64,000 bases of DNA, taken from sequence record MT129654.1; one strand, 5' to 3'. The position numbers and the translations under genes are program-made. Every line of letters begins with the position of its first letter. Position 1 is the stretch's first letter. Source of the DNA: Escherichia phage MN04. Below are positions 11,417 to 16,645 of this stretch, piece by piece. The notes beneath the pieces are model-generated. The model did no database searches. It saw nothing but the letters and a program-made list of their open reading frames with translations, and was not told where the DNA came from.

Positions 11417-13627
11417 ATGATTATTGAAACCGAAAAAGAACAAATCATTGGCAACGGCTCTAAGTCCACAGGATTTACTATCCAGGCTTCGCCTAAGGTC
11501 TTTAAAATTCTTTCATCAGACCTTTATAGTAATAAGGTACGTGCCGTAGTTCGTGAACTAATTACCAACATGATTGATGCTCATATTCTGAATGGTAATA
11601 AAGAACGTTGGAAAGTACAGGTTCCTGGTAAGCTCGACCCTCGCTTTGTGTGCCGTGATTTCGGCCCAGGTATGAGCGATTTCCAGATTCGTGGTGATGA
11701 AAACGAAACCGGTTTGTATAACTCTTATTTCGCATCATCTAAAACTGCTTCTAATGATTTCATCGGCGGCTTTGGCCTTGGTTCAAAATCTCCGTTCAGT
11801 TATACCGAAACGTTTAATATTACCTCATGGCACAATGGCGAAGTTCGCGGTTATGTAGCTTATATGGATGGTGATGGGCCGCAGATTAAACCTACTTTCG
11901 TAGAACCTATGCAGCCAGGTGATAAAACAGGTATCGAAATCACGGTTCCTGTCGATGAAGAAGATTTCCGTAAGTTTGAAACTGAAGTTCGATATATCAT
12001 GCGTCCGTTCATTGGACTTGGCGATGTTGACGGTGTTGAAGTTGATTATTTCCCTGAATTTGAAGACTACTATCCTGTAACCACTACAAATTATGGCAGC
12101 TTCGAACGTTCAGGACTTTATGCAGTTTATGGTGGTATTGTTTATCCATTGGATTCTGCTTATAATAAAGGCACATGGATGCGTACTCGCCATGATGTAG
12201 TTTATATTAAGTTCCCTATGGGTTCGCTGGATATTGCTCCGTCTCGTGAAGTGTTGTCTCTTGATAAACGTACGATGGAAAATATTGCAACCCGTATCGA
12301 AGCACTGGATGCAGTGGTCTTTAAAAACGATACACAAGAATGGGTTGAATCTGATAATCCACGCCATGTTTATCGCGACCTTTCTAACCTTGGTTACAGT
12401 GCTCGTGACTATCTTACCAAAAAAGGTGGGACTAGCCTGTTTACTACAGAAAAATTGACATATGAGAAATTATACCAACGTTACACACTTCAAAACGACC
12501 TTATTAATTTAGGTGTGGTTTACGAAATCGTTTCAGACCCACGTTTGAAACGAATTAAGCCGAGTGGTAATACTTCTTCGGTGGCAGGACTTAGTAGCCT
12601 ATTAGGCATTAATAATAAAGAAATCCATATTGTTTATGATGATGAAAAGGGTCGTGTGCCACTAGTTCGAGGACTTTGGGCTCTGGCAATGGACAACAGT
12701 GCTTCGGCTAAGAAAATTGTTAAAGAGAACAATATTCCTAAATACGGAACCGACCTTATTTTTGTCGACCCAAATTCAATGCTGCAAATGCAACAACTTG
12801 AAAAGGTTAAAGAACTTTTTAAAGGTGACACTATTCATTTTTATAAAGTCTCTGAACTGAATAAAATTGTTAAGCCATGGATTCCGGTTACTGTCCGTTC
12901 ATCAGAACCTCGTCCTAAAACACCAAGTGCTTATCGTTGGTTCATTAAAGACGGACGTTGGCAACAAGAGACCTTGTACTTAACTGCTGCAGAAGCAGAA
13001 GAAATTACAGGGTACGTATTGTTTGGTAGTCGTTCTGATATCATGGGAATGGACGAAGCTTATGGTATCTTTGACATCAACACCACTACCATGTGTCGTA
13101 TGGCTAATTTGATTGGTGCTACCGAATTCCATATCATTCGTCCTCAAATTGCCAAAAAGATTAAAAAGTTAGGCCAATGTGAATGCTTGATGGAAACCAC
13201 GTTAGAAGCTTATGCCCAAGCCTTAGACGAAGTAGATGTTGACGATTACCTTGGTAGTAACACCCGTGCAAGATATTATCTTGAAATCATTGCCAAGTTC
13301 CCTGAGCTAGGTTTCATGACCAAGTATTTCAGTGATAAGCCGGTGTCTGAAGCATATACTCGTCTGAGCAATTTCTATGATATATTCCGTTATATGAATT
13401 TCCATGGCTATATCACTGATGACAAGCTTTCAGTTATCAAGAAAATTTGTAACACGACGTTCTATACGTTAACCGAAAATGCTTCAAGTAACAATGATAA
13501 AATGACTATACAGTTTGAATCTGATTACCATTTAGTTTCGGACTACATGTATCGTCGTGGAACATCCATTACCGAGGCTTCTGTAGCTCAAATCGTTAAA
13601 TTCATGAAAGCCGTGGAAGCGGCTTAA
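11417..13627 (+). CDS. rIIA: rIIA rapid-lysis / RexAB-exclusion protein
   Basis: 736 aa; N-terminus MIIETEKEQIIGNGSKSTGFTIQASPKVFKILSSDLYSNKVRAVVRELITNMIDAH matches T4 RIIA as remembered; followed by rIIB. Confidence 0.92.
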   Translation: MIIETEKEQIIGNGSKSTGFTIQASPKVFKILSSDLYSNKVRAVVRELITNMIDAHILNGNKERWKVQVPGKLDPRFVCRDFGPGMSDFQIRGDENETGLYNSYFASSKTASNDFIGGFGLGSKSPFSYTETFNITSWHNGEVRGYVAYMDGDGPQIKPTFVEPMQPGDKTGIEITVPVDEEDFRKFETEVRYIMRPFIGLGDVDGVEVDYFPEFEDYYPVTTTNYGSFERSGLYAVYGGIVYPLDSAYNKGTWMRTRHDVVYIKFPMGSLDIAPSREVLSLDKRTMENIATRIEALDAVVFKNDTQEWVESDNPRHVYRDLSNLGYSARDYLTKKGGTSLFTTEKLTYEKLYQRYTLQNDLINLGVVYEIVSDPRLKRIKPSGNTSSVAGLSSLLGINNKEIHIVYDDEKGRVPLVRGLWALAMDNSASAKKIVKENNIPKYGTDLIFVDPNSMLQMQQLEKVKELFKGDTIHFYKVSELNKIVKPWIPVTVRSSEPRPKTPSAYRWFIKDGRWQQETLYLTAAEAEEITGYVLFGSRSDIMGMDEAYGIFDINTTTMCRMANLIGATEFHIIRPQIAKKIKKLGQCECLMETTLEAYAQALDEVDVDDYLGSNTRARYYLEIIAKFPELGFMTKYFSDKPVSEAYTRLSNFYDIFRYMNFHGYITDDKLSVIKKICNTTFYTLTENASSNNDKMTIQFESDYHLVSDYMYRRGTSITEASVAQIVKFMKAVEAA

Positions 13628-13641
13628 TCTAAGGAAATATT

Positions 13642-14610
13642 ATGTACAATATTAAATGTCTATCCGAATCTGAACAGGTTGAAATCGTTAAGTTATATAT
13701 TTCTGGTAATTATACCCAACAAGAACTAGCCGACTGGTATAGTGTATCAGTTGATACAATCCGCAGAGTTTTGAATAACCATAAAGAAGCAGGACAAGCA
13801 CAAGTGGTTATTACCGGAAATATTACGGTAACGGTTCCTAACGAGCCTCGTGTAGTTCCGGTTGAAGTTACTATTGGTGGCTCTCGTCCGGAAATTATCT
13901 GGAACGCCAGTTCTAAATTCGTATCCATCACTGAAGGTCGTACAGTATGGAATACTACTAATAAGAACAAACACTTTGATGCCATCGTACAGGCCCTTAA
14001 AGAATCCCGTTTTGATGATGCGATTAAACTGATTTCCATTAAAGAAGCTGTTAAGGCTTTCGTTAAAGGTAACGTTCGTATTGAAGGTGGACGTCTGGTT
14101 TATCAAGGTATCGAATTGCGTTCAGGGTTGATTGACCGTATTATCACCTCAATGGAAAATGGCGAAGATTTTGAATTCTACCTGCCGTTCCTTGAGAATC
14201 TGTTAGAAAACCCAAGCGAAAAAGCTGTACAGCGTCTGTTCGACTTCCTGGTCGCGAACGATATCAAAATCACTGAAGACGGCCACTTTATCGCATGGAA
14301 AGTTGTTAATTCCGATTACACCGACTGCCGTACTGGTACGTTTGATAACTCGCCAGGTAAGCCAGTTAAAATGCCTCGTTCGCGTGTAAATGATGACGAC
14401 GAAGTAACTTGTTCAAGTGGTCTGCACGTTTGCTCTCGTAGCTATATTGGTCATTTTGGTAACTCTAACTGTAAAGTAGTTTCATGCAAAGTTAACCCGC
14501 GTGATGTTGTTAGTATCCCAGTTGATTATGGTGATGCTAAAATGCGTGTATGTTATTATGAAGTTCTGGAAGACGTCACTGAACAGTTCGCAAACGAATA
14601 CAAATACTAA
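13642..14610 (+). CDS. rIIB: rIIB protein
   Basis: 322 aa directly downstream of rIIA; size and synteny as in T4 (312 aa). Confidence 0.85.
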   Translation: MYNIKCLSESEQVEIVKLYISGNYTQQELADWYSVSVDTIRRVLNNHKEAGQAQVVITGNITVTVPNEPRVVPVEVTIGGSRPEIIWNASSKFVSITEGRTVWNTTNKNKHFDAIVQALKESRFDDAIKLISIKEAVKAFVKGNVRIEGGRLVYQGIELRSGLIDRIITSMENGEDFEFYLPFLENLLENPSEKAVQRLFDFLVANDIKITEDGHFIAWKVVNSDYTDCRTGTFDNSPGKPVKMPRSRVNDDDEVTCSSGLHVCSRSYIGHFGNSNCKVVSCKVNPRDVVSIPVDYGDAKMRVCYYEVLEDVTEQFANEYKY

Positions 14611-14648
14611 ATCAATAAACGGAGGCTCCGGCCTCCTAAGAGGAAATT

Positions 14649-14846
14649 ATGTTAGATTACCAAGCACGTGTAATTGATGAATATGCCCAACTGGTCTTGA
14701 AAATTAATGCACTTGAAGAGTTTATTAAAGGCGTCGTTTTTGAAACTCTTGATATCCGTCAACAAGGGTTACTGATTGCACAACTGGATGCAATGGGTGC
14801 ATATGCTCATTGTTTAGAGGTTCGTATTTCTTATTTCGGTGAGTAA
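14649..14846 (+). CDS. Hypothetical protein
   Basis: 65-aa ORF; hairpin ggaggctccggcctcc at 14621-14636 overlaps its SD. Confidence 0.35.
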   Translation: MLDYQARVIDEYAQLVLKINALEEFIKGVVFETLDIRQQGLLIAQLDAMGAYAHCLEVRISYFGE

Positions 14847-14847
14847 A

Positions 14848-15165
14848 ATGATTAATTTCATGAACGTCGGCGACGAAGATATCAAAGATAGTTATCTCCA
14901 AGGTAATCATGTGGCCGATAAGGTTTATTGTGTGGATGTAATCAAATCTGATAAAGCTACAGGCCATCTTTTTGCAACAGATGTGATTTTCGATTCAGTT
15001 GAAAACCTTAAAAAATTAGACCACAGTAAATTGAGTGAAAACTCTCGTATCTATTTTGGTAATGTTCACGTCGAAGAATTGTATATTGGTGGTGATTATG
15101 AATCCGTCAAATCCGGGACTAGTTCGACTGTCGAAGATGCCGACATTTACCCTGAAGACATCTGA
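14848..15165 (+). CDS. Hypothetical protein (D-region)
   Basis: 105-aa ORF from ATG 14848; 3' end overlaps next ORF in another frame. Confidence 0.35.
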   Translation: MINFMNVGDEDIKDSYLQGNHVADKVYCVDVIKSDKATGHLFATDVIFDSVENLKKLDHSKLSENSRIYFGNVHVEELYIGGDYESVKSGTSSTVEDADIYPEDI

Positions 15166-15178
15166 TTTAACGGGTGAA

Positions 15179-15655
15179 ATGAAGGTCAAGATTAAGGATA
15201 CCGTATTGTATTCCTTAAGCCAGGACCCATCCCAAGATAAGAAAGAAGTATTGACTCGGTGTGTTATTGCAACGTATGCAGAGTACATGGTGGCTGATTG
15301 GTTGAAAGGATATGTCAACAGTGGTCTGGAAGACCATGACGACCCTTATACCTACGCCTGGGACGTTTTAGCCCATCCTATGTACTGTGGACTACGTGTA
15401 GAGGTCAAGACCCACCAATCTGATTCTAAGTGGATTTCCTGCACTACAGGATACTCAGGTGACTTCCCTTATGGAACAGGGATAAACCTAGGACCGCTCT
15501 TGAATCATAAAGTTGCAGACTGTATAATTATATTCGACACTTCAGTAAATGAGGCAGGCGACGTCCTGTTCACTCCTAAGTTCTCTGGTGACAGAGAATC
15601 CATCAAAAAGCTAGTCCGTAAGAGTAATTACAACGGCTGGTATCTCGCCTTATAA
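15179..15655 (+). CDS. Hypothetical protein (region where T4 has denB; identity unverified)
   Basis: 158-aa ORF from ATG 15179 (track ORF begins at GTG 15035 inside the previous ORF). Confidence 0.3.
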   Translation: MKVKIKDTVLYSLSQDPSQDKKEVLTRCVIATYAEYMVADWLKGYVNSGLEDHDDPYTYAWDVLAHPMYCGLRVEVKTHQSDSKWISCTTGYSGDFPYGTGINLGPLLNHKVADCIIIFDTSVNEAGDVLFTPKFSGDRESIKKLVRKSNYNGWYLAL

Positions 15656-15669
15656 TTTTAAAAATAAGT

Positions 15670-15699
15670 GTTTACATACACCATGGATGGTGTTACTAT
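15670..15699 (+). promoter_or_regulatory. T4-type early promoter
   Basis: GTTTAC 15670-15675, TACTAT 15694-15699; palindrome caccatggatggtg in spacer. Confidence 0.55.
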
Positions 15700-15730
15700 C
15701 TTCCTATCAACTACATGAGAGGAAAACAAA

Positions 15731-15991
15731 ATGGATATCAAATTATATTACGCTAAACACAAAGTTACGGGTAAAGTTGTTGCCGCAATGTACGATGCAT
15801 CAGGTGAAGATGTTATTACGGAATTATCCCTTTCTAATTGTAGATTTCTTCGTCCTTTGATAGCGTCAAAAAAAGATTTACAAAAACTTATCGACGGTAA
15901 ATTAGATAATGTCGATGATATAGATATCCATTATGAACTCCGCCATGCACTGAATGATGGGTTTATGGAAATAAAAGAGCTAGTATTATGA
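15731..15991 (+). CDS. Hypothetical protein
   Basis: 86-aa ORF with SD gagagg upstream. Confidence 0.4.
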   Translation: MDIKLYYAKHKVTGKVVAAMYDASGEDVITELSLSNCRFLRPLIASKKDLQKLIDGKLDNVDDIDIHYELRHALNDGFMEIKELVL

Positions 15992-16081
15992 GTAGCAAAA
16001 TGTGGTGCCTTATTTGGATAGCCTGTATCCCAGTGATTTGCGTATGTTTTAGTTTATTGTTGTGGAAATTGGCATAAATCA

Positions 16082-16110
16082 GTATACATCTCCATTAGAC
16101 ATGATATTAT
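16082..16110 (+). promoter_or_regulatory. Early promoter variant (GTATAC -35) embedded in an 11-bp inverted repeat
   Basis: GTATAC 16082-16087, TATTAT 16105-16110; arms atctccattag (16088-16098) / ctaatggagat (16122-16132). Confidence 0.5.
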
Positions 16111-16130
16111 AGACCTATCAACTAATGGAG

Positions 16131-16247
16131 ATGATTATGAAAAACTTACTTAAAGCAATTTGGAACATGTTTGTGTTATTGGTTGTATTGAGCATTTTCC
16201 CAATAGTTTTTATGATTGACCATGTACGTGTATTCTTTAACTTCTGA
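16131..16247 (+). CDS. Hypothetical small hydrophobic peptide
   Basis: 38-aa ORF (MIMKNLLKAIWNMFVLLVVLSIFPIVFMIDH...), predicted single TM helix. Confidence 0.3.
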   Translation: MIMKNLLKAIWNMFVLLVVLSIFPIVFMIDHVRVFFNF

Positions 16248-16257
16248 GGAAAATATT

Positions 16258-16404
16258 ATGGGTAATCGAATTTATAAAGTAAAGTTGCATGGTAAAGTGA
16301 TTACTACCGTTAGTTTTAATTTTTATATCAGCGCTGACTGCGCCCGCGATATCCTCATCGAGGAAGGATATAGCGAATACATCCAAATTGAAGAAGTTCT
16401 TTAA
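16258..16404 (+). CDS. Hypothetical small protein
   Basis: 48-aa ORF from ATG 16258 preceded by stereotyped leader ctgaggaaaatattatg. Confidence 0.3.
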   Translation: MGNRIYKVKLHGKVITTVSFNFYISADCARDILIEEGYSEYIQIEEVL

Positions 16405-16420
16405 TTCTGAGGAAAATATT

Positions 16421-16645
16421 ATGAAACTTTTTAAAGATATCGCAGTTGGTGAAAAATTTGTCTTAGGTAATGGTCAACAATTGATTCGCATTTCTCCTTT
16501 AATGGATAATAGTGAGCGGCCCATTCGTACTGAAAACTGTTTGGATTATCCTTTTTATCAAAAGCGTTTTGCTATTGAAAATAATACCGAGTGTTTCACG
16601 GTTGATGAACTGATGGAATTATCAGAAGAAGTCGACTCTGAATAA
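16421..16645 (+). CDS. Hypothetical small protein
   Basis: 74-aa ORF from ATG 16421 preceded by ctgaggaaaatattatg. Confidence 0.35.
   Translation: MKLFKDIAVGEKFVLGNGQQLIRISPLMDNSERPIRTENCLDYPFYQKRFAIENNTECFTVDELMELSEEVDSE

Follow-up and report, generated by a model that had tools for sequence, protein, structure and literature searches.

Endonuclease IV of phage T4, the product of denB, is a Mg2+-dependent enzyme that cleaves single-stranded DNA (ssDNA) on the 5′ side of dC; it restricts the replication of DNA containing cytosine, and its expression is lethal to Escherichia coli (PMC1635256, PMC2175332). The purified, active T4 enzyme is a protein of 185 aa and 21.1 kDa, expressed from the ATG homologous to the one favored below (ATGCAGAAAACGAATCCTGG, MQKTNPG) (PMC1635256, PMC2175332). 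DenB is also the phage trigger of retron Eco2, whose msDNA it cleaves (PMC12916289). Mg2+/dC ssDNA cleavage biochemistry is known for the T4 and T2 enzymes only (PMC1635256, PMC12916289). An overlap between denB and the gene directly upstream, a member of the DUF7418 family, is not new, since the records of phages RB14 and Melville already annotate one of 68 nt. Our literature search found no paper discussing DUF7418 or the DUF7418–denB overlap.

The window analyzed here is a 64,000-nt stretch of Escherichia phage MN04. Its positions 13600-16400 are 96 to 97% identical to Escherichia phages JS10, JS98, IME281, and other Dhakavirus members, and the source phage is a JS98-like Dhakavirus of the T4 type (Straboviridae, Tevenvirinae). 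The position of the denB locus matches the T4 early region rIIA-rIIB-denB.1-denB-ndd: rIIA, rIIB, and denB.1 lie upstream in the window, and downstream of denB the 96% identical JS98 carries homologues of ndd.4 and ndd.1, in the same order as in T4. The features of the locus are as follows.

11417-13627, plus strand: rIIA
13642-14610, plus strand: rIIB
14649-14846, plus strand: denB.1 homologue, 65 aa (Pfam PF21825, Sequestin family, 72.5 bits; named denB.1 in JS98)
14848-15165, plus strand: DUF7418 (RB32ORF268c-like) gene, 105 aa plus stop (PF24193, phrog_2237)
14886-15136, plus strand: allelic cassette of the DUF7418 gene body and the initial ~13 codons of denB (nucleotide identity to QL01)
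15088-15096, plus strand: predicted denB Shine–Dalgarno (SD) sequence GGTGGTGAT, within the DUF7418 coding sequence (duplex with the 16S 3′ end)
15098-15655, plus strand: denB, predicted endonuclease IV, 185 aa plus stop (phrog_1360, alignment with T4 DenB)
15098-15165, plus strand: 68-nt out-of-frame overlap, denB in frame +1
15140-15153, plus strand: candidate dual-coding core CCGACATTTACCCT, 14 nt (P-T-F-T-L in DenB, D-I-Y-P in DUF7418)
15179-15181, plus strand: internal ATG, Met28 of DenB (denB start in RefSeq JS98 and IME281)
15731-15991, plus strand: phrog_2390 (RB69ORF270c-like) gene

Three further ORFs were considered as genes, at 15016-15318 and 14725-14967 on the minus strand and at 15687-15860 on the plus strand; none belongs to a PHROG family, and they were therefore taken as mechanical. 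An Rfam scan of 13500-16500 gave one chance-level match, outside the interval, and a promoter and terminator scan gave nothing exceeding shuffled expectation. Between the rIIB stop codon and the SD sequence of denB.1 there is a perfect GC-rich hairpin (GGAGGC-TCCG-GCCTCC, 14621-14636), with no T-run on the plus strand; the comparable hairpin of T4 and RB14 (GGGCTTCGGCCC plus T-run) is placed one gene later, after denB.1 and ahead of the DUF7418 gene. NCBIfam and PADLOC hold no model of DUF7418, DenB, or denB.1.

denB is full length

The original prediction described two out-of-frame overlapping ORFs, one at 14848-15165 (105 aa, from ATG 14848) and one in a frame open from GTG 15035 and ending at 15655, and both were recovered in our analysis. 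It held that neither was of the ~185-aa size of DenB. The starts that it listed for the second frame (GTG 15035, ATG 15137, and ATG 15179) are all present as codons, but ATG 15098, the homologue of the T4 start, had been missed, and from this codon 15098-15652 translates as a single open frame to exactly 185 aa. The alignment with T4 DenB (NP_049887, 185 aa) has 185 columns, no gaps, and 71% identity; that with RB14 DenB (185 aa) is likewise gap-free, at 70% identity. The phrog_1360 profile (DenB-like endonuclease IV) matched with E = 6.3e-89, its positions 1 to 188 corresponding to residues 22 to 205 of the maximal ORF, and its position 1 falls on residue 22, the Met of ATG 15098. When the 185-aa DenB was used as a tblastn query, residues 1 to 185 were covered in 1083 of 1090 phage records. 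PF26887 (Phage_T4_End_IV) is precomputed on close homologues of the window protein.

Residues G71, W88, D89, E102, K104, S176, G180, and W181 are invariant in DenB alignments. W88 and S176 are hit in T4 denB mutants (PMC2175332), and G71, G180, and W181 are the sites of T2 mutants that escape retron Eco2 (PMC12916289); all are kept in the window protein. Among close relatives, JS98 shares both its DenB and its DUF7418 protein with the window at 100% identity, and the interval aligns with IME281 without gaps, so there is no indel relative to independent isolates. The original prediction had also offered a frameshifted or rearranged denB, or its replacement by unrelated genes, as explanations. 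Their one attraction is an apparent lack of a 185-aa ORF, which arises once ATG 15098 is overlooked. The uninterrupted frame from 15098 to 15655, the gapless colinearity with T4 DenB, the retained mutant-defined residues, the identity to proteins of independent isolates, and the phrog_1360 match refute a denB that is frameshifted, rearranged, or replaced. denB in this phage is full length and normal, neither broken nor replaced.

By homology to the T4 enzyme, the window DenB is a predicted Mg2+-dependent, dC-specific ssDNA endonuclease IV. It shares with T4 DenB its length of 185 aa, colinearity, the start context, and the place downstream of rIIB and denB.1; the loci differ upstream, where the DUF7418 gene, intact in the window, is cut in T4 to a 37-codon in-frame remnant. 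An AlphaFold2 (AF2) model of DenB built with 20 homologues was of moderate overall quality (mean pLDDT 69.5). DenB was considered for the PD-(D/E)xK nuclease superfamily, which is marked by a D...(D/E)xK catalytic motif on an α/β core; the invariant D89, E102, and K104 would be candidate residues of such a motif. With Foldseek against the PDB, the top matches of the model were the PD-(D/E)xK enzymes PvuRts1I, HincII, NlaIV, MGME1, and Sau3AI, all nonsignificant at E > 0.5 and TM < 0.3, and a PDB sequence search with DenB gave no match.

The denB start and the overlap

We compared four start candidates, GTG 15035, ATG 15098, ATG 15137, and ATG 15179, by the free energy of the duplex between the preceding sequence and the 16S 3′ end. 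The strongest SD sequence precedes ATG 15098 (-12.4 kcal/mol), where GGTGGTGAT fits the extended Shine–Dalgarno sequence at 8 of 9 positions, followed by those of ATG 15179 (-8.4 kcal/mol), ATG 15137 (-1.4 kcal/mol), and GTG 15035 (-0.4 kcal/mol). An SD-like element precedes the homologous ATG in every relative examined. The predicted N-terminus from ATG 15098 is MNPSNPGLVRLSK..., and that from Met28 is M28-KVKIK....

A denB that starts at ATG 15179 (Met28) would encode 158 aa and avoid any gene overlap, leaving the in-frame codons upstream untranslated. RefSeq JS98, IME281, and mogra annotate this start; it is preceded by GGGTGA, a moderate SD sequence by the energy given above, and Tequatrovirus, Dhakavirus, and Mosigvirus all retain Met28. 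Several lines of evidence oppose it. DenB residues 1 to 27 are conserved as protein (M..NPGL.RL..PTFTL..SDLT.E), and the NPG..RL..P motif is also kept in Erwinia phage IT22 and Acinetobacter phage PhT2; since neither phage has a DUF7418 gene, the other reading frame cannot account for this N-terminal conservation. Of 13 relatives, 8 have a codon other than ATG at position 28, Melville and VIPECLOM01 among them, and the DenB profile begins at Met1. In the AF2 model, residues 1 to 30 reach pLDDT values of 81 to 88 and form a helix (6 to 12), a strand (17 to 19), and the beginning of a second helix (26 to 42); Met28 lies inside this second helix, which a start at that codon would cut. The active T4 enzyme is, moreover, the 185-aa form. 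We consider the Met28 start quite improbable, although minor initiation at this codon may occur besides that at ATG 15098.

On conservation, SD strength, the variability of codon 28, and the AF2 model, we therefore favor ATG 15098, the homologue of the T4 denB start, as the predicted start of denB. The 158-aa DenB of RefSeq JS98 and IME281, which is 27 residues short, is probably an annotation error. The denB starts in the records of JS98, IME281, mogra, VIPECLOM01, and X20 differ (giving 158 aa, 177 aa, or, in X20, a start ~19 codons late) and appear to have been chosen to dodge the overlap. Near-identical denB genes are held in protein databases in versions of 158, 172, 177, and 185 aa.

With denB starting at ATG 15098, the overlap between the two genes is 68 nt (15098-15165) and holds DenB codons 1 to 23 together with the last 22 codons and the stop of DUF7418. 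The ~130 nt given in the original prediction is a mechanical maximum, counted from GTG 15035 (15035-15165, 131 nt). Wherever an intact DUF7418 gene was present among the loci examined, denB followed immediately, and the DUF7418 gene extended over the denB start by 8 to 80 nt. These lengths are distributed as follows; the 68-nt overlap was found in six genera.

68 nt: Dhakavirus (both alleles, including that of QL01), Tequatrovirus RB14, Gelderlandvirus Melville, Karamvirus VIPECLOM01, and Jiaodavirus KEN22; also VR5
65 nt: Mosigvirus
80 nt: Winklervirus X20 (a Serratia phage), with the start reset to the homologous ATG, which has an AGAGG SD sequence (the start in the record gives 23 nt)
35, 26, and 17 nt: metagenomic T4-like contigs
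17 nt: Kanagawavirus 305
26 and 8 nt: the two most distant DUF7418 family members

All of these lengths (8, 17, 26, 35, 65, 68, and 80 nt) are of the form 3k+2, and the phase of denB is thus constant (+1). Where the DUF7418 allele is short, the codons for its conserved C-terminal strand, ...HIRGIYG (AGA GGN ATN TAT GGN), themselves supply the SD sequence and ATG of denB. The overlap between DUF7418 and denB is more than chance, and it is conserved.

Of the 84 same-strand junctions in the final 50 kb of RB14, 37 are overlaps; that of denB, at 68 nt, is the longest, and the other 36 are all ≤26 nt. Like the ordinary T4-type same-strand overlaps (ATGA, TAATG, and others, 1 to 11 nt), the denB overlap places a downstream start inside an upstream coding sequence and is compatible with translational coupling. 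It differs from them in length, being 2.6 times the longest other overlap in this stretch of RB14, and in content, in that ordinary overlaps hold start and stop signals only, whereas that of denB carries 22 to 23 codons of each protein. A long overlap of this kind is unusual for this genome type but already known.

The constant +1 phase at all loci would also be expected of a programmed +1 ribosomal frameshift in the overlap, yielding a DUF7418–DenB fusion of about 31 kDa. The codon alignment of the overlap, however, contains no conserved slippery or stall motif, and there was neither an RNA structure signal nor an Rfam match. The context of the DUF7418 stop varies by lineage (ATC TGA T, CAG TGA T, GAA TGA G), as does the length of the overlap (8 to 80 nt). 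denB has its own conserved SD sequence and ATG, and T4 DenB is active as a 185-aa protein. We give a programmed frameshift next to no credence.

We conclude, with a probability of roughly 90%, that the locus comprises two intact, separately translated genes, with the denB SD sequence and ATG lying inside the 3′ end of DUF7418 and a 68-nt overlap in the +1 frame. A genuine overlapping gene pair was among the options of the original prediction, and it is the one borne out by the intactness of both ORFs and by the conservation of the arrangement among relatives. In such an arrangement, ribosomes would start on denB de novo, at the strong SD sequence of that gene, while others that are translating DUF7418 cross the site; the latter would terminate 68 nt downstream of the denB start. 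Expression of a toxic nuclease would thereby be tied to translation of the upstream gene, with an effect that could be activating or damping. Folding of 15050-15190 gave no signal (z = +1.2) of a hairpin that hides the denB start.

The two parts of the overlap differ in their pattern of constraint. Over DenB codons 2 to 13, mean pairwise amino-acid identity is 53% in the DenB frame compared with 29% in the DUF7418 frame, and synonymous-codon identity is low (0.33). Over codons 14 to 23, synonymous-codon identity is 0.74 compared with a background of 0.46, ranking fourth of 175 ten-codon windows. The core CCGACATTTACCCT within this segment is nearly invariant in nucleotides among genera with a 65- to 68-nt overlap, and PTFTL is not kept in phages with an earlier DUF7418 stop or with no DUF7418 gene. 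These patterns suggest that the region encoding the distal DUF7418 tail may be under some dual constraint; they are suggestive only, as the sample is small and phylogenetically nonindependent. The overlapped stretch encodes the N-terminus of DenB, predicted to be ordered, and an acidic tail of DUF7418, predicted to be disordered, a combination that would allow the two frames to coexist.

The upstream DUF7418 gene

The ORF at 14848-15165 matches Pfam DUF7418 (PF24193) over profile positions 1 to 100 of 101, with 121.6 bits against a cut-off of 27, and phrog_2237 with E = 1.4e-37. The same gene is annotated RB32ORF268c in RB14. Like RB32ORF268c and RB69ORF272c, the window protein is a full-length family member encoded directly upstream of denB, with the 68-nt overlap of RB14 and Melville; its identity to the RB14 protein is only 42%. 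The gene has an SD sequence of its own, GGTGAG before ATG 14848 (-7.6 kcal/mol). AF2 predicts a β-rich domain over residues 1 to 82 (pLDDT about 90), followed by a tail (residues 84 to 105, pLDDT 45 to 56) that is strongly acidic and predicted to be disordered; this tail is exactly the part overlapped by denB. Homologues in more than 10 genera are 26 to 53% identical and conserve L17, G19, H21, R67, Y69, and G71.

The original prediction had named, as an outcome that would count against it, the full-length alignment of either ORF to a known intact protein family with the other frame spurious. Both ORFs align full length to known families, and neither frame is spurious. That denB alone is real, and the upstream ORF spurious, could be argued from the dispensability of DUF7418, which is mostly deleted in T4 and disrupted in Sf24. 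Set against this are the PF24193 match, amino-acid conservation across genera, the confident model over 82 residues, the gene's own SD sequence, and its fixed place upstream of denB at every locus examined, and we judge a spurious upstream ORF highly improbable.

A single-sequence search with DUF7418 returned one cluster only, and a profile search was used thereafter. Run exhaustively against 1.84 billion cluster representatives, the profile found 14 clusters only, and there are thus no remote relatives from which to borrow a function. The predicted fold had no match in the PDB by Foldseek (best E = 0.83), and in BFVD it matched its own family only. By these searches, DUF7418 is a family of narrow range, confined to T4-like phages.

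Residue 43 of the window protein is Ala, where more than 90% of the family have Cys (C43 of the alignment), and DUF7418 alleles of Salmonella phages lack the other conserved Cys (C28). With C43 missing in the window and C28 in the Salmonella phages, a strict cysteine metal-binding site in DUF7418 is unlikely.

Two observations concern other database entries. In Kosakonia phage 305 (NC_070776), a DUF7418 homologue at 1201-1491 is labeled ‘rIIA lysis inhibitor’ in RefSeq and looks mislabeled; the DenB homologue downstream appears truncated, at 157 aa, and is followed by a separate short ORF. A 1394-nt ENA contig encodes a predicted 184-aa protein whose N-terminal part is RloB-like (PF13707) and whose remainder corresponds to the C-terminal two-thirds of a DUF7418 of the Mosigvirus type; the junction may reflect a genuine insertion or fusion, or else a chimeric assembly.

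Gene loss, allelic exchange, and the meaning of the linkage

In T4 (NC_000866), the 82 nt that separate denB.1 from denB are part of an unannotated, in-frame deletion remnant of DUF7418 (MIYMNIGDSDIKE|SLNAENESWVTETISDSDIYPIEQ*, 37 codons), recognized by alignment with RB14. Its end still reaches into denB by 68 nt. The same comparison places the junction of the deletion at a short repeat resembling AAAGGAAA; this junction is also present upstream of denB in three IMG/VR contigs. Since T4 has lost most of the gene and its denB is genetically and biochemically active, DUF7418 is dispensable for DenB activity.

Within Dhakavirus, an alternative allele is represented by QL01. Compared with QL01, the window shows nucleotide identities of 30 to 67% over ~14886-15136, flanked on both sides by sequence of 90 to 100% identity. 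By this profile, the DUF7418 gene body together with the initial ~13 codons of denB is an allelic cassette exchanged within the genus.

The strict, family-wide adjacency of DUF7418 to denB and the fixed phase of the overlap could indicate that DUF7418 is a dedicated functional partner of DenB, its translation physically tied to denB initiation. If so, its acidic tail could modulate a toxic ssDNA nuclease or mask DenB from host sensors such as retron Eco2. The tail carries an aromatic motif at its end (..D-x-D-I-Y-P..) and resembles the acidic C-terminal tips of the SSB type. Arguing against a partnership, T4 has a functional DenB without most of the gene, and the DUF7418 body is swapped in Dhakavirus, where the window and QL01 proteins are only 40% identical, whereas their DenB proteins remain 96% identical. 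We regard a dedicated partnership as a tentative and rather unlikely proposal.

The finding of two intact, separately translated genes brings little new biology, both genes being known; its mild curiosity is the long, phase-locked, family-wide overlap. Its value lies mainly in annotation, as the overlap makes gene callers and curators choose inconsistent denB starts, and the correct start matters now that DenB is under study as the trigger of retron Eco2. The T4 homologue of denB.1, Y16O, was tested directly and is an anti-Thoeris sponge for 3′cADPR, and its family, PF21825, has been named Sequestin (bioRxiv 10.1101/2025.07.12.664507). Given this activity of the Sequestin family, the denB.1 homologue of the window is a likely antidefense gene. 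The DUF7418 family thus adjoins a proven antidefense gene on one side, and its strict linkage to denB on the other offers a concrete, cheaply testable hypothesis about the family.
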